Source: Treponemataceae bacterium
GTDB lineage: Bacteria > Spirochaetota > Spirochaetia > Treponematales > Rectinemataceae
NCBI GenBank assembly: GCA_963678065.2
Contig: CAXXVZ010000003.1
Coordinates: 1,056,001 to 1,120,000 of the forward strand
Length of the DNA: 64,000 nucleotides
Direction of reading: 5' to 3'
Positions 12,879 to 22,136 of the stretch are shown one piece after another. Numbering within the stretch: position 1 is the stretch's first letter; every line of letters begins with the position of its first letter. The notes beneath the pieces were generated by a model. That model was given only the letters and a program-made list of their open reading frames with translations, was not told where the DNA came from and searched no databases. The position numbers and the translations under genes are program-made.

Positions 12879-13616
12879 TCAGGCTTCGATTCCCGCCTCC
12901 ATTTCCAGCTTCGCCCGCCGCCTTCCCTGGACACGCAATATCGCGATGGAGAGCTCGAAGAGGCCGAGCATCGGAACCGCCAACAGAATCTGGGATACGA
13001 CATCGGGCGGTGTCACGATGGCGGCGACGATGAAGATCCCGAGAATGGCGATGCGCCTGGACCTGATGAGTATCTCCGCCTTCAGGATGCCCAGGGCTCC
13101 GAGCACGGCCGCGGCGATGGGCAGTTCGAAGGTGAGTCCGAAGGCGACGCAGAGGTCGGAGATGAAGCCGAGGTACTCTTTGATCGAGATCATGGGCTCC
13201 ACCATCTGGCTCGAATACGAGAGGAAGAACCTGATGGTGAAGGGGACGATGACGAAGTAGGCGAATGCCGCCCCGGCCACGAAGAAAAGTCCGCTGAAGA
13301 GGAGGGCCCCGAGTATGGACCGCCTCTCCGTCGCGCCGATCGCAGGGCGCACGAACATCCATATCTCGTAGATGATGACGGGAAGGGAAAAAGCGAGCCC
13401 CGCGTAGACTGAGAGCTTCACGAAGGCGATGAAGAGGTCGGGAGGGGAAAGAAAAACGAATTTCAGCCCTGAGGCGGGCTTCATGATAAAATCCGCCATG
13501 GGTTTCGTGAAGGAGAAGCTCGCGAACGTGGCGATGATGAATACAACCAGGACGACGATGATTCGCTTCCTGAGTTCGGCCAGATGGCTGTAGAAAGGCA
13601 TCACTTTATCGCTCAC
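12879..13616 (-). CDS. tatC: Twin-arginine translocase subunit TatC (start approximate)
   Basis: HLAELRKR, YEIW.F..P, FELP, TPPDVVSQ, LFELSI. Confidence 0.93.
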   Translation of the reverse strand: MSDKVMPFYSHLAELRKRIIVVLVVFIIATFASFSFTKPMADFIMKPASGLKFVFLSPPDLFIAFVKLSVYAGLAFSLPVIIYEIWMFVRPAIGATERRSILGALLFSGLFFVAGAAFAYFVIVPFTIRFFLSYSSQMVEPMISIKEYLGFISDLCVAFGLTFELPIAAAVLGALGILKAEILIRSRRIAILGIFIVAAIVTPPDVVSQILLAVPMLGLFELSIAILRVQGRRRAKLEMEAGIEA

Positions 13617-13653
13617 GGGAGCTTCCTGTCCGGCCTCGGGCGCGATCACTTTT

Positions 13654-13896
13654 TCAGGCCTTTCCGCCCTTGTCGGTCTTTTCGGCCTTGGCCGCGGTGT
13701 TCTCGATCTTGGGGGCGGCCTCGTCGGGACTCGTCGCCTTGTCGATTTCGTCGGTGACCTTCTCGGAAGTCTTGCGGAACTGGCGGATGGCCTCGCCGAC
13801 AGCCTTGCCGATTTCGGGCAGCTTCTTGGGTCCGAAAATGACAAGGGCAATTACAAGGATGAGTATGAGCTCCATGGGCCCGATTCTTCCGAACAT
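13654..13896 (-). CDS. tatA: Twin-arginine translocase subunit TatA
   Basis: IGPMEL..I...[27 protein letters not shown]. Confidence 0.93.
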
Positions 13897-13905
13897 GATG
13901 TCCTC

Positions 13906-14712
13906 CTACCGGATCCGCTCCGGCCGCGTATAAATGACGGGATCCCGGGATCCCATTCTTCCCACCAGCGTCAGACCGCCTCTCTGGGCTATTTCGTAGG
14001 CCGTTGTCGTCGGAATGCTTCGTGATACCACGATCGGAACGCCTGCGACAACGGCCTTGAGGGCCATATCGGCGGCGATCCTTCCGCTTGTCAGAAGGAT
14101 GCAGGAGCCGGGATCGACTCCGTCGAGCATCGCTCTGCCGATGACCTTGTCGACAGCGTTGTGCCTGCCGACATCCTCCCGCGCGACAAAATACGCTTCG
14201 TCGCCGCGGCCCGCGATGGCCGCACAGTGCATGCCGCCGGTCAGACGGTACAATTCCGCCGCCGCAAACATGTCCCGCGCGCGGGCCGCAAGCTCCTCTG
14301 TCGAGACGGTCCACCCGCACTCGACTGGCGGCCTGTACAGGAATTCCTGGGAAAACAGGGCCCCCGAGCCGCATCCGGAAGCGATGACCCCCCCGAGATC
14401 CAGGCCGGCGCCGACACTGATCGAGGCCGATTCGACATCGACGCGCGCCTTCGAGAGGCAGACCTTGATGGAGGGCGGAGGGCAGGGAGTCCCCGCCTGC
14501 CTTGCATCAGGGCCGGAGCTGAAATCGACCAGCCCCCTCGTGACCAGATGCCCCCATGCGAGCTCAGTCAGATCGCGCGGAGTACACATCAGCACGGCTA
14601 TCTTCCTGCCGTTGGCGTAGATCTCCACAGGCTGCTCAGAGGCCAATGGCGCCGCCGAAAGCGAGGCCGCTGGCGGAGTCCGGGATAGTGCGGCGCGTGA
14701 CTCCCCTGGCAA
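13906..14712 (-). CDS. fdhD: Formate dehydrogenase accessory sulfurtransferase FdhD
   Basis: MCTP.DL, SGCG, TGGMH.AA, EDVGRHNAVDKVIG, TSGR. Confidence 0.9.
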   Translation of the reverse strand: MPGESRAALSRTPPAASLSAAPLASEQPVEIYANGRKIAVLMCTPRDLTELAWGHLVTRGLVDFSSGPDARQAGTPCPPPSIKVCLSKARVDVESASISVGAGLDLGGVIASGCGSGALFSQEFLYRPPVECGWTVSTEELAARARDMFAAAELYRLTGGMHCAAIAGRGDEAYFVAREDVGRHNAVDKVIGRAMLDGVDPGSCILLTSGRIAADMALKAVVAGVPIVVSRSIPTTTAYEIAQRGGLTLVGRMGSRDPVIYTRPERIR

Positions 14713-14729: not shown

Positions 14730-15266
14730 TCAGGGATTCTCCTTCTGGATGACTTCGATGAATTCGGCCAGTCCCTGCGCGTGGTTCTCGCCGAGAAACT
14801 CGCTCGAATACAGGAACAGTACACCATTGGAAGTCCGACAGGTCTTTATGTCGGCCGTATCAGGCCGCATGGCGATCCGGTTGAGGGTTTCGCCGAACTC
14901 GTTCTGTCGCATCGAAAAAGGAGGCTCTAGGAAAGTCCGCGCGTAGGTAGGTCTCGGGTAGATGCGCGACTCGTCGCGGACCGTATCCGCCACGAGCCTG
15001 ACAGGATCCCTCTCCTCCACCCTGAAGAGGTGAAGCGCGTAGGCAGCCGTAATTTCCTTCTCGCTGAAATAGTATTCGTCCCGGGAACCGGCGATCTTCT
15101 TGATGTCGTCGGCCTGGGCCTGCGACACGAGGAGCGCTGGGTCATCCTCAGGGAACTCCCGCTTTAAAGCGGAGAGGCGCATGAGGGAGCCTGCGCGGCT
15201 CGTTTCGCGTATCCTTTCGGCAAGGGCGGCCGGATCTATCCGGCCGACTTTCGGTTCTTTGCTCAT
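14730..15266 (-). CDS. ydhW: YdhW-family oxidoreductase-system protein
   Basis: GS.D.YY.S, V.DTVR.E...YPRP, ADI....S..VL.LYS, GL.E..EV.Q.ENP resemble E. coli YdhW as remembered; lies directly after ydhV. Confidence 0.8.
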   Translation of the reverse strand: MSKEPKVGRIDPAALAERIRETSRAGSLMRLSALKREFPEDDPALLVSQAQADDIKKIAGSRDEYYFSEKEITAAYALHLFRVEERDPVRLVADTVRDESRIYPRPTYARTFLEPPFSMRQNEFGETLNRIAMRPDTADIKTCRTSNGVLFLYSSEFLGENHAQGLAEFIEVIQKENP

Positions 15267-15356
15267 GGCACTAGCTACAGGATACAGGCATCGGGTGTGA
15301 ATGCCAACCAGGACAAAAAGCCCGGTGGGCGGAGTCACTCCCCGATGCCATCACGA

Positions 15357-17474
15357 TCAAGGCAGAAGTCCGCGGGCTGCGAGATCGTCGGCTACGGCTG
15401 CGAGGCCGGCGGCTTCGAGTCCCGCGCGGGAGGGCGCGCCTGTCCTTTCGTCCCAGCCGAACTCGCGGTAGACCATGGTCCTTCCGAGTTCCAGGTCTCC
15501 GGCTTCCATCTGGATGGTGCCGGGGGTGAACTGCGGGATATCCACGCCGTTCTTGTCCTTGTCTGGCTTGGTCACCCACTTGGTGGTCTGATCGTGCTCC
15601 TTGCGGAGATCGGCTGTCCCCATCTGGCGCACCGTGATGGCGCGGAAGAGGGTGAAGTTCTTGGCAGCAGCCTCGTCGAGCTGCTTTTCCGTCATCTGGA
15701 TACCGGTCGCGAGGGAGTAGAATTTCGCCTCGAGGCCGGTGTCGCCGCGGTACTTGCGCTCCCTGAGGGGGCTCACGGACATCGGCCACATCCAGTTGCA
15801 GAGCGTGAGGCTGTTGTGCAACATCGCCCTCGAGAGGGCCCACTTGACGAATCTCGCCTTGTAGACATTCATCGGCTTGTAGTTCAGCGGTGCGTCGTAG
15901 GCGTCAGGAGATCCGAAAATTTCGCCGGCGATCTCCTTCTGGAGGGCGACGGGGAGTTTGGAGCCGACGAAGTTCATGTGCGAGTGGTTCTGGGAGTCGC
16001 GGTTGGAGAAGCAGGAGATGAGGGCGCCGACCTGACCGTTGGCCTCGTTGGAGTGGTGGACGGGATATCCGCCGTGAGTCCAGAGTTTGCCGTTCTTGTC
16101 GTTCCAGTAGTCGTCGCCGAGGTTCCAGCGCTCGGCGATCCAGTAGGAGCCGTCGGCGATGTGGGAGAACTCGCCGATCTTGAAGGCGACGCGCTTGTAG
16201 AAATCGAGGTAGAAGGTTGCATCGCCCTTGATGAGCTTGTCCCATGGAATGGAAGCGTACTCGTCGGCAGGCAGGACGCGCTTGAAGACGCCCTTGTCCC
16301 AGCAGTATTTGAGATCGCGGCCTATCTGGGCGTAGTTGCACCAGACGCCGTAGTCGTCGGCGAGCTTGGTGCCGATGGCGTTGCCGATGAGGGCACTGTC
16401 GGGGCCGTTGCCGTCGAATTCCTTGATGCCGTTGAACATGACGCCCTTGGGGCCGGACCATCCGACGCAGGTGTTGCCGACGTACTCATCGTAGCCATAT
16501 TTCTTCAGCGCAGGCACCTTGAGCTGGGAGTGGCAGCGGATCGGGCAGTGGGCGCAGCCGCCCATCCTGACCGTGAATTTTTCCGCTCCCGCGCCGAGAT
16601 CGAAGATGGCCTTCTGCGTGCGCAGGCCGACGGACTGCATGTCGTGCGGATCGCACTCGCCGGTCTCGACCGGAGGATTGGCGGCGCCCCAGTAGAGGCC
16701 CTTGCGCCCTGTCCACCTGGACGAGCTGTCGGAGTACTCGGCCCACCTCTGGGGGGTGGAGGGAACGACCATCTGGTTGTTCGCGCCGATGATAGTCATC
16801 ATGTATTTCTCGAGCTCCATCCAGTCCTTGCGGTCAGCCGCGATCTTGACGGATCCGGTGCCCTTGACTCCGATGGCCTTGAGGTTCTTGGCGCCCATGA
16901 CGCCGCCATGGCCGCCGGCGGAGTGCGAGGTTCCGGTGCGGATGACGGAGAGGTTGACCATGTTCTCGCCGGCCTGACCGATAGCCGCAACCTGGGCCTC
17001 CTTGCCCATGAAGGAGGCGACCATGGCCTGGGTGTCGAAAATGCCCTTGCCCCACATCCAGCGCGCGTCCTCGATGGTGACGACATCGTCCTCGATGCGG
17101 AGCCAGACAGGGCTCGATGCCTTCCCTTCGATGACGATCATGTCCCAGCCGGCGTATTTCAGTTCGACGGAGAAGTAGCCGCCCATGTGGGAGCTCGAGA
17201 CGCCGCCGAAGGGGCTGGAGGGAAGCAGGGAAGTGATGTTGGTCCTTCCGGAGCAGGGAGCGCCCGTGCCGCACAGGGGACCGGTTCCGAAAATGATCTT
17301 GTTCGCGGGATCGAAGGGCTTGGTGCCGGGGGCGACTTCGTCCCACATGATCTTCATGGCGATGCCTTCGCCGCCGATGAACTCGACATATTTGAGGGTA
17401 TCGTCAGTGGAGACTTCCCTGGTGTTGAGGTTCACGCGGAGAATCTTGCCGGTGTATCCGTATGTTGTGCTCAT
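15357..17474 (-). CDS. ydhV: YdhV-type aldehyde:ferredoxin oxidoreductase family enzyme
   Basis: GYTGKILRVNL, GTKPFD.ANK, IGANN..VVPSTPQ.WAEYSD..SRWT.RKGL.WGAA, C..CPIRC. Confidence 0.9.
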   Translation of the reverse strand: MSTTYGYTGKILRVNLNTREVSTDDTLKYVEFIGGEGIAMKIMWDEVAPGTKPFDPANKIIFGTGPLCGTGAPCSGRTNITSLLPSSPFGGVSSSHMGGYFSVELKYAGWDMIVIEGKASSPVWLRIEDDVVTIEDARWMWGKGIFDTQAMVASFMGKEAQVAAIGQAGENMVNLSVIRTGTSHSAGGHGGVMGAKNLKAIGVKGTGSVKIAADRKDWMELEKYMMTIIGANNQMVVPSTPQRWAEYSDSSSRWTGRKGLYWGAANPPVETGECDPHDMQSVGLRTQKAIFDLGAGAEKFTVRMGGCAHCPIRCHSQLKVPALKKYGYDEYVGNTCVGWSGPKGVMFNGIKEFDGNGPDSALIGNAIGTKLADDYGVWCNYAQIGRDLKYCWDKGVFKRVLPADEYASIPWDKLIKGDATFYLDFYKRVAFKIGEFSHIADGSYWIAERWNLGDDYWNDKNGKLWTHGGYPVHHSNEANGQVGALISCFSNRDSQNHSHMNFVGSKLPVALQKEIAGEIFGSPDAYDAPLNYKPMNVYKARFVKWALSRAMLHNSLTLCNWMWPMSVSPLRERKYRGDTGLEAKFYSLATGIQMTEKQLDEAAAKNFTLFRAITVRQMGTADLRKEHDQTTKWVTKPDKDKNGVDIPQFTPGTIQMEAGDLELGRTMVYREFGWDERTGAPSRAGLEAAGLAAVADDLAARGLLP

Positions 17475-17491: not shown

Positions 17492-18187
17492 TCACGCTGT
17501 CGCGCCTGAGACGACATCGGCTCCGTACAGGAGCTTTTCGGCATCCTCGAAGCTGTACATGCGGATGGCGCCCGTAGGGCAGGCCTTCGCGCAGGACGGA
17601 TCTCCGTCACAGGTCGTGCACTTCGTGGAAATGTTGGTTTCCTGGTCGACCGTGGGGATACTCCAGGGGCAGGCGCGTTCGCAGGTTCCGCAGCCTATGC
17701 ACTTGTCCTCGTCGACGACACGGGCACCAGTTTTGGCGTTGGTGCCGATCGCTCCGACCGGGCAGTTGATGCCGCAGGCGGGCTTGCCGCACTGGCGGCA
17801 GGTCTCGCCGACAATGCGGAAGTTGCCGAGTTGGCCATCGGCCACCGCATACGCGGAGCTTACGCCCTTCGGCCCGAAGTTCTGGTTCCGCGTGATCTTG
17901 ACGCGGGAAATATGGGAGGAGACCTTGCCGTCGTTCCTGGCGGTGCAGGCGTACTCGCACCTGCGGCAGGCGACGCAGCGGTTGGGGTCCTGGATCATGA
18001 CGCCGTTCGGTGTCGCCCAGACCATAACCTCATTTCCGCCCTTGATCTTGACTTTCGTCGCGCCACCGAGTGTGAGTGCAATGAATGCGGCGGCTAAACC
18101 GCCTCCGGTGACCTTGAGAAAGTCGCGTCGGGACTGACTTTTCCCGAAGAAAGAGCCCACTTCCGTTGTGTTGAAGGAGTCGCTCAT
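17492..18187 (-). CDS. ydhY: YdhY-type 4x[4Fe-4S] ferredoxin with Tat signal and C-terminal DVVSGAT motif
   Basis: SRRDFLK plus hydrophobic stretch; CVACRRCEYAC, CRQC..P.C...CP, CIGCGTC...CP, C..C....C...CP; AGGAG RBS. Confidence 0.85.
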   Translation of the reverse strand: MSDSFNTTEVGSFFGKSQSRRDFLKVTGGGLAAAFIALTLGGATKVKIKGGNEVMVWATPNGVMIQDPNRCVACRRCEYACTARNDGKVSSHISRVKITRNQNFGPKGVSSAYAVADGQLGNFRIVGETCRQCGKPACGINCPVGAIGTNAKTGARVVDEDKCIGCGTCERACPWSIPTVDQETNISTKCTTCDGDPSCAKACPTGAIRMYSFEDAEKLLYGADVVSGATA

Positions 18188-18248: not shown

Positions 18249-18378
18249 CTCCTTTCCAATGCCGGAAAGGCGGGAGGCATGCCGGTTTCCCTGCATACCT
18301 TTCAGAAGGGGGACGACGCCCCCTCCTTAAGACCGCACTCCATGGCCCCGGAGGCCTGCAGGATGATGCGGTTCGGAG
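18249..18378 (-). ncRNA. Molybdenum-cofactor (Moco) riboswitch
   Basis: Minus strand CTCCGA...P2 ACCGCA/TGCGGT...P3 AGGAGGGGG/CCCCCTTCT...P4 GGTATGC-GG-GAAA-CC-GCATGCC...GCCTCCCG...TGGAAAGGAG; sits upstream of pterin-enzyme genes. Confidence 0.85.
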
Positions 18379-18555: not shown

Positions 18556-19314
18556 TCAGCCGGGGCTCTTCCCGGCGATGAAGGACGCGAGTTCCTCGCG
18601 GGTGTTGATGTTGTAGAACAGCTTCCAGTCGGGCGTGTATCCCCTCGCCTCTTCTTCCGGAATGCGCAGGTGGCTCACCCTGGCGAGGAGGTTGCCGATG
18701 GAGGGCGCGCCGCTCCCGGCCCGGCGCCCGCGGCGCCCCCGACTCTCGAGGCTTCCGGAGTTCTCTGGCGGCGGAATCGCTGCGCTCCTCTCGCCTCGTC
18801 CTTCGGATTCCGGATCTCGCACCGGGTACGCCGCGCACAGCGCCTCGATCTCGGAAAGAAGGGAGGTAGAATAGAAGGCGTGGAAAGGCTCGAAGTGGTC
18901 CCGGTAAGCCGCCACGCAGGCCCGCGCCTCTTTCGTCTCCATGATCCGCCTCATACAGTCTTTCATGAAGAGAGAATCGAAACCCGGCATGTCGCAGGCG
19001 GTGAGGAAGACCCATTCGGCCGATGAGGCCCGGAGCGCAGCATGGAGCCCGGAGAGAGGACCGAAACCGGGGAGAAAATCGGTGACTATCCTGATCCCCG
19101 GATACGCGTAGAGTTCCGGGCGATAGGTCACGACGATTATCTCCTCGAAATGCGCGCAAAGGGCCCGTATCTGCCTTTCCGCGAGCCTCTCGCCACCCAG
19201 GCTGATCGTCTGCTTGTCGAGACCCAGCATGCGCTCCGAGCGTCCGCCTGCGAGGATCGCAGCGGTCCCGAAGAGCCTCTTTCCGACTCCGGCCTCCCCT
19301 TCCCTTCCCCTCAT
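18556..19314 (-). CDS. mobA: Molybdenum cofactor guanylyltransferase
   Basis: ILAGGRSERM...DK, GPLSGL, ACDMP, EPFHAFY, NINT.EE; ATGA-coupled to the fdh stop. Confidence 0.9.
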   Translation of the reverse strand: MRGREGEAGVGKRLFGTAAILAGGRSERMLGLDKQTISLGGERLAERQIRALCAHFEEIIVVTYRPELYAYPGIRIVTDFLPGFGPLSGLHAALRASSAEWVFLTACDMPGFDSLFMKDCMRRIMETKEARACVAAYRDHFEPFHAFYSTSLLSEIEALCAAYPVRDPESEGRGERSAAIPPPENSGSLESRGRRGRRAGSGAPSIGNLLARVSHLRIPEEEARGYTPDWKLFYNINTREELASFIAGKSPG

Positions 19315-22136
19315 GAACTGGAATCTGCCTTCCCAATGCGGACGGCGCAGGCTTTGAGTTCGGGAATTTTTGCCATCGGGTCGAGGGCGAGTCCGTTGGT
19401 GAGAAGGTTGGCGGCCGCCTGTGCGTAGTGGAAAGGCATGAAGGCCACTCCGCGCTTCACTGAGGCCCGGGTTCTGACGATCGTCTCGAGGCTGCCCCTG
19501 CGCGAAGCGATGGTTGCCCTGTCCCCGCCGGCCAGTCCGTAGAGGGCGGCCGTCTCGGGGTGAATTTCGACGTAGTGCTCCCCGGCAATGCGCGTGAGTC
19601 CGTCGATCCTGCCCGTCATGGTCCGCGTGTGGTACTGGTAGAGATTGCGGCCCGTCGTGAAGACGACAGGGTACTCGTCGTCCTCGCTCTCGCGGGGAGG
19701 ATGCCATGCGGCGTGGACAAAGAGCCCCTTCCCCCTCGTCATCCTGTCGACGTGGAGGATGGGCGTACCGGGATGGGAGGCATCGGGACAAGGCCACTGA
19801 ATGCCATCCCCCTCGAGGCGCGCATACGAGATGCCACGGTACTGGGGCACGAGGGCGGCCATCTCATCGAAAACAGCGCCGGCATCTGTAGATACGACAG
19901 TATCGAAAGATGCCGAGGCATCTACAGATACAACAGCATCGAAAGATGCCGAGGCATCCGCAGACTTCCCGGCCTCTGTCTGCGAGAAGCCGAGCCGTCC
20001 GAGGATCGTTGCGAGGATATCGAGATCTTCCTTGGCCTCCCCTGGCGCGCCGAGCGCCTTCCGGACCCTCTGGACACGCCGCTCGGTGTTGGTGAAGGTG
20101 CCGTCCTTCTCCGCGAAGCAGGCGGCAGGAAGGACGATATCCGCGAGAGCCGATGTCTCGGTGGGAAAAATGTCCTGGACGACCAGAAAACCGACCTTCC
20201 CGAGGGCATGGAGGACGTGATTCGAATCAGGTTCCGAGAGGACAGGATTCTCTCCCATTATATGGAGGAAACCGATGCCTCCCTCGGCCGCACGGTCGAG
20301 AATTTCCGTGGAGGTGAGCCCGCGCTCGGAGGAGAGGGGGACGCCCCAGGCTTCCGAAAAGGCCGCGAGGGCTGCGGGATCGCTGGTCTTGCGGTAACCC
20401 GGCAGATCCCCGGGCAGGCAGCCCATGTCGCAGGCGCCCTGGACATTGTTCTGCCCCCGCAGGGGATTGATGCCGCAGCCCGGCCTCCCCAGTTTTCCAC
20501 AGGCAAGCGCGAGGTTGGACAGGCACATGACACCGTCGGTCCCGCTCGAGTGCTGGGTGACGCCCATCGCATAGAATATTCCCGCGCGCTCCGCCTTCGC
20601 GTAGAGGCGGGCCGCCCGCCTGATATCCTCAGCCGCCACGCCACAGACTTCGGCGCCTCGCTCCGGGGACCAGTCCGCGAGCGCCTTCGCCCAGGAATCG
20701 AAGTCCTCTGTCCTCGTTTCGACAAACTCCTTGTTCCAGAGTTCCTCGTCGACGATGACCGCGGCCATGGCGTTGTAGAGGGCGACATTCGTGCCCGGCT
20801 TCAGCTCGAGGTGGATGGAGGCGAGGCCGGCGAGTTCCGTCCTGCGGGGATCGGCCACGATGAGGGTGGCGCCCCGTTTGACCGCCCTCTTGATCCTGGA
20901 CCCGATGACCGGATGAGTCTCCGTCGTGTTCGATCCGGTGACGAAAATGACATCCTGTAAGTCGATGCCTTCTATCGGATCGGTCATCGCCCCCGATCCC
21001 AGGGTCGTGGCGAGGCCCGTCACTGTCGAGGCGTGGCAGAGCCGCGCGCAGTGATCGATGTTATTCGTGTGGCCGGCGAGACGGTACAGCTTCTGGAAAA
21101 GGTAGTTCTCCTCGTTGGTGCAGCGCGCGGAGGAAAGCCCGGCTATCGCATGCGGCCCCCGGGGGACCGCTCCCTCCCCTTCACCCTCAGCCGCTTTCGA
21201 TCCAGGCCCCTTTCCGTCGCGCGTCCGGAGAAAGGCATCGACGACGCGCCCGAGGGCTTCGTCCCAGGAAGCCTCGACGAGGACACCGTCGCGCCGCACG
21301 AGCGGCTTCGTGAGCCTCTCCGGGTGGTTCACAAAACTGTAGGCGAAGCGCCCTTTCACGCAGAGAAGCCCCTTGTTCGCGGGCCCGTCCGCAGGATCGA
21401 CACCGACTACCCTGCCGCCAGAAGTCAGAAGCTCGATGGAGCAGCCGACTCCACAGTAGGGACAGATTGTCCTCGTCCGTTTGACATACGAGTAGCCCGG
21501 AAAATGCCGTTCGCGGGGCATGAGGGCCCCGACCGGGCAGGCGGCTACGCAGTTCCCGCAGGACACGCAGCTCGAGGCGCCGAAGGAGAAGCCCCAATCC
21601 GGCGCGACGCGCGCCGACCTGCCCCTCCCCGCGAAGCCGATGACACCGGAGCACTGGAGGCTTTCGCATGTCCTCACGCATTTGCCGCAGAGGATGCATT
21701 TATCCGGATCGAAATTGAAAAACGGATGGCTGACATCAGGCTTGCGGAACTTTTTTTCGAGCCCGGTCTCGACTTTCACGACCCCATGGATGTGGCAGTA
21801 CTCGTGGAGGGCGCAGGCTCCCGATTTTTTGCAGTTGAAGCAGTCCGAAGGGTGCTCGGCGAGGATCATCTCGAGGACGGCTTTCCGCATCGCGACAGCC
21901 CCGGGAGAATCAGTGCGCACGACCATGCCTTCGGCCACCGGCGTGGCGCAGGCGGGCATGAAGCCCGTCTTCGAGCCCTCGACCTCCACCATGCACACGC
22001 GGCAGCCGCCGTGGGCCTCGAGGCCGGGGATGTGACAGAGAGTGGGAATCTCGATTCCAAGGCCGCGGGCCGCCTCGAGTATCGTCGCCGATCCTGGAAC
22101 GCAGGCCGCCCTGCCGTCGATCCTGAGTGTCGTCAT
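19311..22136 (-). CDS. fdhF: Formate dehydrogenase alpha subunit (Cys-type) with N-terminal [2Fe-2S] and [4Fe-4S] domains
   Basis: IPTLC..CRVC..C, H..DC..C..C, two ferredoxin motifs, CPYCGVGC, IDHCARLCH, PLRGQNNVQG, EKDGTFTNTERR. Confidence 0.88.
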   Translation of the reverse strand: MTTLRIDGRAACVPGSATILEAARGLGIEIPTLCHIPGLEAHGGCRVCMVEVEGSKTGFMPACATPVAEGMVVRTDSPGAVAMRKAVLEMILAEHPSDCFNCKKSGACALHEYCHIHGVVKVETGLEKKFRKPDVSHPFFNFDPDKCILCGKCVRTCESLQCSGVIGFAGRGRSARVAPDWGFSFGASSCVSCGNCVAACPVGALMPRERHFPGYSYVKRTRTICPYCGVGCSIELLTSGGRVVGVDPADGPANKGLLCVKGRFAYSFVNHPERLTKPLVRRDGVLVEASWDEALGRVVDAFLRTRDGKGPGSKAAEGEGEGAVPRGPHAIAGLSSARCTNEENYLFQKLYRLAGHTNNIDHCARLCHASTVTGLATTLGSGAMTDPIEGIDLQDVIFVTGSNTTETHPVIGSRIKRAVKRGATLIVADPRRTELAGLASIHLELKPGTNVALYNAMAAVIVDEELWNKEFVETRTEDFDSWAKALADWSPERGAEVCGVAAEDIRRAARLYAKAERAGIFYAMGVTQHSSGTDGVMCLSNLALACGKLGRPGCGINPLRGQNNVQGACDMGCLPGDLPGYRKTSDPAALAAFSEAWGVPLSSERGLTSTEILDRAAEGGIGFLHIMGENPVLSEPDSNHVLHALGKVGFLVVQDIFPTETSALADIVLPAACFAEKDGTFTNTERRVQRVRKALGAPGEAKEDLDILATILGRLGFSQTEAGKSADASASFDAVVSVDASASFDTVVSTDAGAVFDEMAALVPQYRGISYARLEGDGIQWPCPDASHPGTPILHVDRMTRGKGLFVHAAWHPPRESEDDEYPVVFTTGRNLYQYHTRTMTGRIDGLTRIAGEHYVEIHPETAALYGLAGGDRATIASRRGSLETIVRTRASVKRGVAFMPFHYAQAAANLLTNGLALDPMAKIPELKACAVRIGKADSSS
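19881..19958. repeat. Imperfect 36-bp tandem duplication within fdh
   Basis: GGCATCTGTAGATACGACAGTATCGAAAGATGCCGA / GGCATCTACAGATACAACAGCATCGAAAGATGCCGA. Confidence 0.85.

Follow-up and report, generated by a model that had tools for sequence, protein, structure and literature searches.

A putative natural flavin tag at the C-terminus of the Tat-signal ferredoxin subunit of a spirochaete YdhV-type enzyme

The ydhY operon

The window (the whole stretch of 64,000 nucleotides analysed here) comes from a genome of 5.27 Mb that is 99.9% complete with 6.7% contamination. On its minus strand lies an operon with the order Moco riboswitch, ydhY, ydhV, ydhW-like gene, fdhD, tatA, and tatC. The riboswitch at its head (RF01055; 18233..18390, minus strand; cmscan 53.2 bits against a gathering score of 36, E 6.8e-10) fits the Mo/W bis-pterin cofactor predicted for YdhV. 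The catalytic subunit gene ydhV, or worL (15357..17474, minus strand), matches PRK09849 with 1065.9 bits (cut-off 868); its product is 54% identical to E. coli YdhV and has no signal peptide, the AFOR_N domain beginning at residue 9. It is followed by a ydhW-like gene (14730..15338, minus strand; PRK09947 at E 1.2e-37, below the cut-off; 30% identity to E. coli YdhW), a gene for an FdhD-like sulfurtransferase (13906..14712, minus strand; TIGR00129 above the cut-off), tatA (13654..13896, minus strand; PF02416), and tatC (12879..13850, minus strand; PF00902), the true start of which is probably located downstream of 13850. A mobA-like gene upstream (18556..19317, minus strand) and, farther upstream, a gene for an FdhF-type formate dehydrogenase (19311-22136) probably do not belong to the complex described here. 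A promoter and terminator scan gave matches at the consensus level only. One RNA run contained a 0.12 share of words and yielded no more than scattered short contigs, none of which covers the C-terminal motif of ydhY.

A YdhV-type large pterin subunit, a Tat-signal Fe-S small subunit, and a gene for a further subunit (the ydhW-like gene) together match the description of class V WORs. In a tree, YdhV groups with E. coli YdhV, apart from two other AORs of the genome (which contains nine AFOR_N matches in all); the assignment to clade 41/YdhV is thus made by the PRK09849 score and this grouping, not by placement on the published 92-clade tree. The fdhD gene also accompanies ydhYVW at many loci devoid of a formate dehydrogenase gene (L028, L029, L035, L041, L045-L050, L054, L065, L069, and L202), an association also remarked in PMC13328260. 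Because fdhD travels with ydhYVW at such loci, it is suggested that its product matures the YdhV cofactor.

The first gene, ydhY or worS (17492..18187, minus strand), is preceded by a good ribosome-binding site (GGAG...ATG) and encodes a Tat-signal polyferredoxin of 231 amino acids with four cysteine groups; an alternative start at 18280, giving an ORF of 262 amino acids, was rejected because it falls inside the riboswitch. YdhY is 41% identical to its E. coli counterpart, scores 195.8 bits against PRK09898 (below the cut-off of 213), and is most similar in fold to 8c0z_C and 6x1o_B, which are small subunits of AOR/WOR5 enzymes; a search of the PDB found no close relative of YdhY or YdhV with a solved structure. 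Matches to Fer4 families predict that cysteines between Cys71 and Cys203 (17579..17977, minus strand) ligate four [4Fe-4S] clusters, and 14 cysteines are invariant across an alignment of 60 sequences.

A sequence-only reading of this DNA had reported a twin-arginine motif near the start of YdhY and a flavinylation motif at its end, and both are present. The former, SRRDFLK (residues 19-25; 18113..18133, minus strand), precedes a hydrophobic stretch. The TAT_signal profile matches at E 5e-4, below its cut-off, and of eight crude twin-arginine candidates in the genome, YdhY is the most clear-cut. Tat export, as proposed in that reading, is supported by the only tatC found in the genome being in this operon. 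Five of the 32 tagged homologues have RK or RL in place of the twin arginine, and E. coli YdhY likewise has RL at this site. Half of the close homologues (16 of 32) have a lipobox cysteine, which is replaced by glycine in the copy of the window, so anchoring varies.

The C-terminus reads LYGADVVSGATA-stop. Beyond the last Fe-S cysteine (C203) a short tail ends, as the sequence-only reading had it, in the candidate ApbE flavinylation tag D224-V-V-S-G-A-T230 (17498..17518, minus strand), with Thr230 as the predicted acceptor; after the motif DVVSGAT, there is only an alanine before the TGA codon. E. coli YdhY (NC_000913, b1674) aligns to about residue 215, which leaves a spirochaete-specific extension of about 14 residues; [ST]GA[ST] is absent from the E. 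coli protein, which bears out the earlier statement that it has no such tail. The AlphaFold model (mean pLDDT 64.7) places the tag on a tail of low confidence that appears unstructured: residues 224-231 have pLDDT below 50 and follow a helix at 213-221; the flexible part would be a short tether of about nine residues. No match of YdhY to PF04205 (FMN_bind) was found at E 0.1, and in the model the motif is a bare tail.

Conservation of the C-terminal tag

In 15,538 six-frame ORFs of at least 100 amino acids from the genome, the strict motif has a frequency of approx. 1e-5 per residue. For the last 15 residues this corresponds to approx. 9e-5 per ORF, with 1.35 occurrences expected and four seen. 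As approx. 1.35 C-terminal motifs are expected genome-wide, a single match proves little. Conservation is far more informative. Each of the 32 homologues with at least 56% identity (P0002-P0033 of 108 matches, P0002 being the window's own cluster) keeps the tail, as the sequence-only reading required of close homologues: 26 are exact, four have Glu for Asp, and two are degenerate, having lost the Gly. None of the next 30 matches (P0034-P0063) is tagged; 19 of them end in CxxCH and 11 have neither motif, two of the 11 being apparently frameshifted. Moreover, in all 13 genes for which genomic copies were compared, the tag codons vary synonymously, with TCN/AGC switches at Ser and changes at the third positions of Gly and Ala, and the DNA 3' of the ydhY stop codon is not conserved. 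Together, the synonymous changes and the unconserved DNA past the stop indicate that selection acts on the peptide, and conservation excludes chance as the origin of the tag.

The variation of the tag also fits the published seven-residue rule, since the x positions are free, Ser and Thr are exchangeable, and loss of Asp had a mild effect in mutational work (PMC12052999). According to the same source, seven-residue tags function best at protein ends. Sixteen of the 32 tailed homologues carry a further S-G-A-[ST] copy. In such doubled tails (e.g., L032, L033, and L045), the second copy mostly lacks the Asp, its position being taken by the acceptor Thr/Ser of the first copy; as a speculation, the FMN phosphate on the first acceptor might replace the missing Asp. 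The single tag of the window has the appearance of a doubled tail that has contracted by six residues.

Named relatives are Spirochaetaceae, Rectinemataceae, and Treponema MAGs. A 50%-cluster search gave no tag outside this one clade among the 150 matches listed, a metagenome scan gave no tagged locus among the best 13 of 80 loci, and a phylum-wide YdhV search added only one further genome among 400.

Three putative redox devices at the small subunit of YdhV-type enzymes

For comparison, 73 loci were retrieved, 40 of the YdhV family (L040-L071, L073-L079, and L081) and 33 with more distant AORs, the small subunits of which lack the tag. Neighbouring genes were annotated from 150 ORFs, mostly drawn from 249 candidates. 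Among the 40 YdhV-family loci, five have a tagged YdhY, 13 have a YdhY with a CxxCH tail, and eight have a tail-less YdhY beside a gene for a protein with a flavinylation-type motif (seven of these proteins score above the FMN_bind cut-off and that of L051 below it). Eleven have none of these devices (two being cut by contig ends), two have no ydhY on the contig, and one is frameshifted. The CxxCH motif on the C-terminal extension of YdhY (L052, L054, L056-L065, L071, and L123-L131; 19 proteins within P0042-P0062) is likely to represent a mono-haem c tail. The occurrence of three redox-cofactor devices at the same subunit is the best indirect sign that the spirochaete tail is a redox handle. 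The FMN arm of the sequence-only reading thereby gained support from other YdhY clades, which carry a CxxCH tail or an FMN-site neighbour. The 11 loci devoid of all three devices indicate that the enzyme apparently also works without a dedicated one.

In the window's family, 11 of 13 YdhY proteins are tagged; the tail-less ones are those of G002 and G022, the latter being cut off. In G002, an FMN_bind gene is located between ydhV and ydhW. At L047:1015-11490 (Anaerosolibacter), ndh2-DoxX is divergent from genes for an FMN lipoprotein, ApbE, and a prenyl synthase, followed by ydhY, ydhV, ydhW, fdhD, tatA, and tatC; here a class V WOR operon is directly preceded by a cluster of the extracellular-electron-transfer type. 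The haem-tailed gut locus L124 keeps genes for a cytochrome c and for NrfC-like and NrfD proteins. Two loci, in a spirochaete and in Geobacter, have in common a 92-aa ORF of no known family just before ydhW (L037:7008-7283 and L053:9153-9428).

A quick tree was built from YdhV only, i.e., without the tail, omitting fragmentary or frameshifted rows (L030, L031, L036, L043, L054, L059, L064, L077, L078, and L079), duplicates (L038, L040, and L042), and G500. The 11 tagged rows form one branch (SH-aLRT 100) and ten haem rows form another (99). The tag therefore arose once, and its co-occurrences count as one evolutionary event. Tail-less loci that lack ydhXU surround the tag clade, and XU was thus probably absent before the tag appeared.

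These comparisons bear on the proposal that the tag replaces the YdhX/YdhU membrane module of E. coli. The absence of this module, as originally stated, was confirmed: no homologue of YdhU or YdhT was found in the genome by tblastn and phmmer, and the best YdhX match is YdhY itself. However, specific replacement is not supported by the comparison, as no ydhU or ydhT match occurs at any of the 40 YdhV-family loci, tagged or not. It is further weakened by the 11 loci devoid of any device and by the haem-tailed gut locus, which keeps its NrfC-like and NrfD genes.

ApbE and candidate electron partners in the genome

The genome encodes an ApbE protein (PF02424, 306 bits) with a lipoprotein-like N-terminus, its gene being located at G000:C2:85992-87071, on a different contig from ydhY. 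When aligned to the structures of Treponema Ftp and Listeria FmnB, it has residues corresponding to Asn55, Ser240, His256, Asp284, and Thr288 of Treponema Ftp, and hence the catalytic and metal-binding residues (roles as described in PMC4436053 and PMC12052999); the expectation of an apbE/ftp gene in this genome thus held. Treponema Ftp has FMN transferase activity (PMC4436053). The apbE gene is present in all 13 tagged genomes examined (G500 left out) and in 32 of 36 family genomes, and an apbE match is missing in 6 of 13 haem-tailed genomes, which are drafts. It adjoins no tagged operon examined; only the tail-less L047 has apbE at the locus. Similarly, the 13 ydhY genomes of the family all have tatC (44 of 69 family genomes overall), an Ndh2-DoxX protein (52 of 69), and a two-domain FMN_bind protein (47 of 69). 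Co-occurrence with these four genes was dropped as a statistic, the backgrounds being 64-89% and the genomes kin. Of the proposed co-occurrence of the tag with apbE and with loss of ydhXUT, the first part is thus seen in 13 of 13 tagged genomes, whereas the second is uninformative, as tail-less loci also lack these genes.

Modelling with ESMFold2 of ApbE, FAD, and Mg with YdhY residues 186-231 scored 0.43, against 0.02 for the best control, which lends weak support; at least 83% of contacts agree between runs, and the partner pLDDT is at least 45. Among 78 solved complexes, just five had scores of 0.60 or less, as did all four passing mismatches; a value of 0.43 therefore adds little, as it lies in the range shared with mismatches.

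Since a flavin on a soluble tail cannot cross the membrane, a membrane partner encoded elsewhere in the genome is needed. NrfD was not found in the genome, and PF01292 gave just one match, below the cut-off and elsewhere than in the operon. Several candidate partners are present. The first is a secreted two-domain FMN_bind protein encoded at C3:232868-233740, which carries D-A-x-S-G-A-S words. The second is an Ndh2-DoxX fusion (G000:C2:49808-53139; L214 and L215), encoded beside a polyprenyl synthase gene. Its Ala/Thr-rich loop ahead of the DoxX helices repeats S-A-A-[ST], with a leading Asp in 6 of the 11 copies listed, and these words may possibly be flavin sites devoid of Gly. A NarI-like cytochrome b (G000:C5:473329-474237; L229) is a further candidate membrane partner: it matches PF02665 above the cut-off, carries E-V-V-S-G-A-S in its N-terminal tail, and its gene lies upstream of one for an Fe-S/CCG-type protein. 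Rnf is also among the candidates, as an rnf-like cluster with RnfD and FMN_bind genes and a second RnfD/NqrB-like gene. Genes of the futalosine-type menaquinone pathway are present.

Motif-like words were also noted in three small proteins of the genome. A predicted lipoprotein of 136 amino acids with a low-complexity body (G000:C5:641428-641838; L208) has four such words, two of them exact, and no match in Pfam or NCBIfam; its sequence would be compatible with a possible fold-less carrier of several flavins. A three-helix membrane protein of 118 amino acids (G000:C2:422502-422858; L207) has an exact motif five residues from its end, and its gene follows those for another AOR and a probable regulator. 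A secreted protein of 235 amino acids and no known family (G000:C5:1206739-1207446; L209) has one exact motif at residue 60. As a separate observation, cytochrome c assembly genes adjoin a gene for a multihaem cytochrome.

Proposed mechanism and alternative readings

The preferred reading, to which a probability of approx. 0.62 is assigned, is that the tail of YdhY is a natural flavin tag that provides the Tat-exported YdhY-YdhV pair with a flavin-tipped arm. The twin-arginine signal of YdhY would take the folded pair through the Tat system encoded in the operon; co-export of YdhV is deduced from its lack of a signal and from the known behaviour of Tat heterodimers, and such export is very probable. 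The tail would then face the same compartment as ApbE. Periplasmic ApbE would attach FMN to Thr230, and this step is considered probable. Unrelated proteins bearing a C-terminal F1 tag were flavinylated completely (PMC9400968). On the other hand, the motif is not always enough, as Ftp of T. denticola failed to modify TP0171 (PMC4436053), and a lysine of the substrate plays a part in the flavinylation of NqrC (PMC4767422). Electrons would run along a wire from the Mo/W-pterin through the Fe-S clusters to FMN, the flavin being the exit or the entry point. Provided that FMN is attached, it is rather likely that it mediates electron exchange of the four Fe-S clusters with an external partner. In this role, it would correspond to the haem c at the C-terminus, or to the separately encoded FMN_bind protein, that seem to do the same job in other clades. 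As ydhU is absent whatever the tail type, the tag is better regarded as a fused, minimal version of the flavin-binding subunit described for class V WORs of gut Clostridia (PMC13328260) than as a replacement of YdhXU.

As for the membrane route, a first but tentative choice leads through the Ndh2-DoxX protein, which is linked to menaquinone, and uses the two-domain FMN_bind protein of the periplasm as a relay; this route would make YdhV a periplasmic terminal reductase. The ydh operon of E. coli is subject to anaerobic regulation. Both this regulation and the gene arrangement of L047 would favour the Ndh2/menaquinone route and the reductase role, the latter being slightly preferred over an oxidase that feeds the membrane.

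Among the alternatives, one accepts flavinylation and differs in where the flavin goes: FMN might fold back into a pocket of YdhY or YdhV and serve as a fixed one-to-two-electron converter. The flavinylated extension of FMN_red does adjoin a conserved flavin pocket (PMC11334425), the tether of YdhY is short, and the distance from the last Cys to the start of the motif is 21 residues in each of the 13 genomic copies. However, no flavin-binding family matches YdhY or YdhV in a profile search, and the tail changes by whole repeats (16 of 32 are doubled), which is better suited to a free tail; such a fold-back is considered improbable.

A low probability is also given to a tail that is conserved for a purpose other than flavinylation, e.g., as a docking peptide, a protease or turnover signal, or a site of another Ser/Thr modification. 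The Gly is indeed lost in two of the 32 homologues, and ApbE enzymes may be substrate-selective (PMC4436053). Nevertheless, the conserved positions exactly match the ApbE rule while the free positions vary, related words occur in the FMN_bind protein of the same genome, and relatives carry other redox-cofactor motifs at the same spot.

It is still less likely that the flavin arm was gained directly as ydhX and ydhU were lost, with no other membrane module needed. The tagged operons examined all lack ydhXUT, the genome has no match to YdhU, YdhT, or NrfD, and E. coli has XUT and no tail. This pattern loses its force with the complete lack of ydhU among the 40 loci whatever the tail type, with the tail-less, XU-less loci that surround the tag clade, and with the NrfC-like and NrfD genes kept by L124. 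Finally, a chance match or a DNA/RNA constraint beside the ydhV ribosome-binding site is hardly credible: even with approx. 1.35 ORFs with a C-terminal motif expected genome-wide, the peptide is kept in 32 of 32 homologues, while the codons change freely at third positions and between Ser families, and the DNA past the stop is unconserved.

Relation to known systems

The flavin-tag reading combines two known kinds of system, a class V WOR and an ApbE substrate, and the conserved feature itself is real. Class V WORs with a Tat-signal WorS have been described in PMC13328260, including the Cetobacterium somerae CsWOR41LSW operon, which resembles that of the window in having WorL, a Tat-signal WorS, and a W subunit, followed by tatA/tatC and fdhD, and in lacking XU. 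Its large subunit showed no activity on 46 aldehydes, and according to the same source a substrate is not known for any class V WOR. An unknown flavin-binding subunit is reported there for class V WORs of gut Clostridia. In contrast to WOR clade 41 of that study, the spirochaete enzyme carries the flavinylation motif on WorS itself; the main text of PMC13328260 contains no mention of FMN, flavinyl, ApbE, or spirochaete. The spirochaete genome also differs from E. coli, with its YdhYVWXUT system, in the absence of YdhX, the cytochrome b YdhU, and YdhT.

The closest parallel for the tail is found in FMN_red proteins (Huang et al. 2024, PMC11334425), in which one or two motifs are located on a flexible, unstructured C-terminal extension devoid of the FMN_bind fold and for which flavinylation was shown experimentally. 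Unlike FMN_red tails, which feed an existing flavin pocket, the tail described here is carried by a Tat-signal four-cluster ferredoxin of a Mo/W enzyme. Engineered Flavin-tags (PMC9400968 and PMC12052999) are likewise C-terminal motif tails, but artificial. In PF04205 proteins (NqrC, RnfG, PplA, and TP0171), by contrast, the motif is part of a folded FMN_bind domain, which does not surround the motif of YdhY.

Covalent FMN or c-type haem links to the respiratory chain have been compared for Listeria FrdA and Shewanella FccA (Meheust et al. 2021, PMC8238504). As in those reductases, flavin and haem appear to be alternatives in YdhY, and membrane components are encoded elsewhere. However, whole domains are exchanged in the fumarate-reductase-like and alcohol-oxidase systems of that study, compared with a seven-residue tag versus a single CxxCH here, and no apbE lies beside the tagged operons, unlike in the apbE-clustered flavinylation systems. 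No match for molybd, 4Fe-4S, or aldehyde was found in the text of PMC8238504. Surveys keyed on FMN_bind domains or on proximity to apbE would miss YdhY because it has neither. A literature search in which subscription papers were mostly out of reach gave no description of YdhY, WorS, or any other Fe-S subunit of a Mo/W enzyme as carrying a flavinylation motif. The sequence-only reading knew of no description of this arrangement; for the combination this agrees with the literature found, while Tat-exported YdhYV without XU and flavinylated tails are each already in print.

Possible significance

A broader generalization, which is doubtful at present, is that class V Mo/W enzymes have an interchangeable plug on their Fe-S wire (a flavin tag, a c-haem, or an FMN protein) and that in this organism a network of fold-less flavin tags leads to menaquinone. 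Such a periplasmic network would include the fold-less tags on the Ndh2-DoxX loop, the NarI-like cytochrome b, and small exported proteins, and flavin-to-flavin hops would join a Tat-exported metalloenzyme to the menaquinone pool without a dedicated membrane subunit.

If the flavin-tag reading is true, a fluorescent covalent flavin on the small subunit would provide a direct handle on the electron path and the partner of the enzyme. It would add Fe-S subunits of Mo/W enzymes to the list of ApbE substrates and would represent a natural counterpart of the engineered Flavin-tag. Moreover, the YdhY family would offer a minimal flavin/haem swap, in which seven residues in one clade and a CxxCH in another occupy one and the same tail position.
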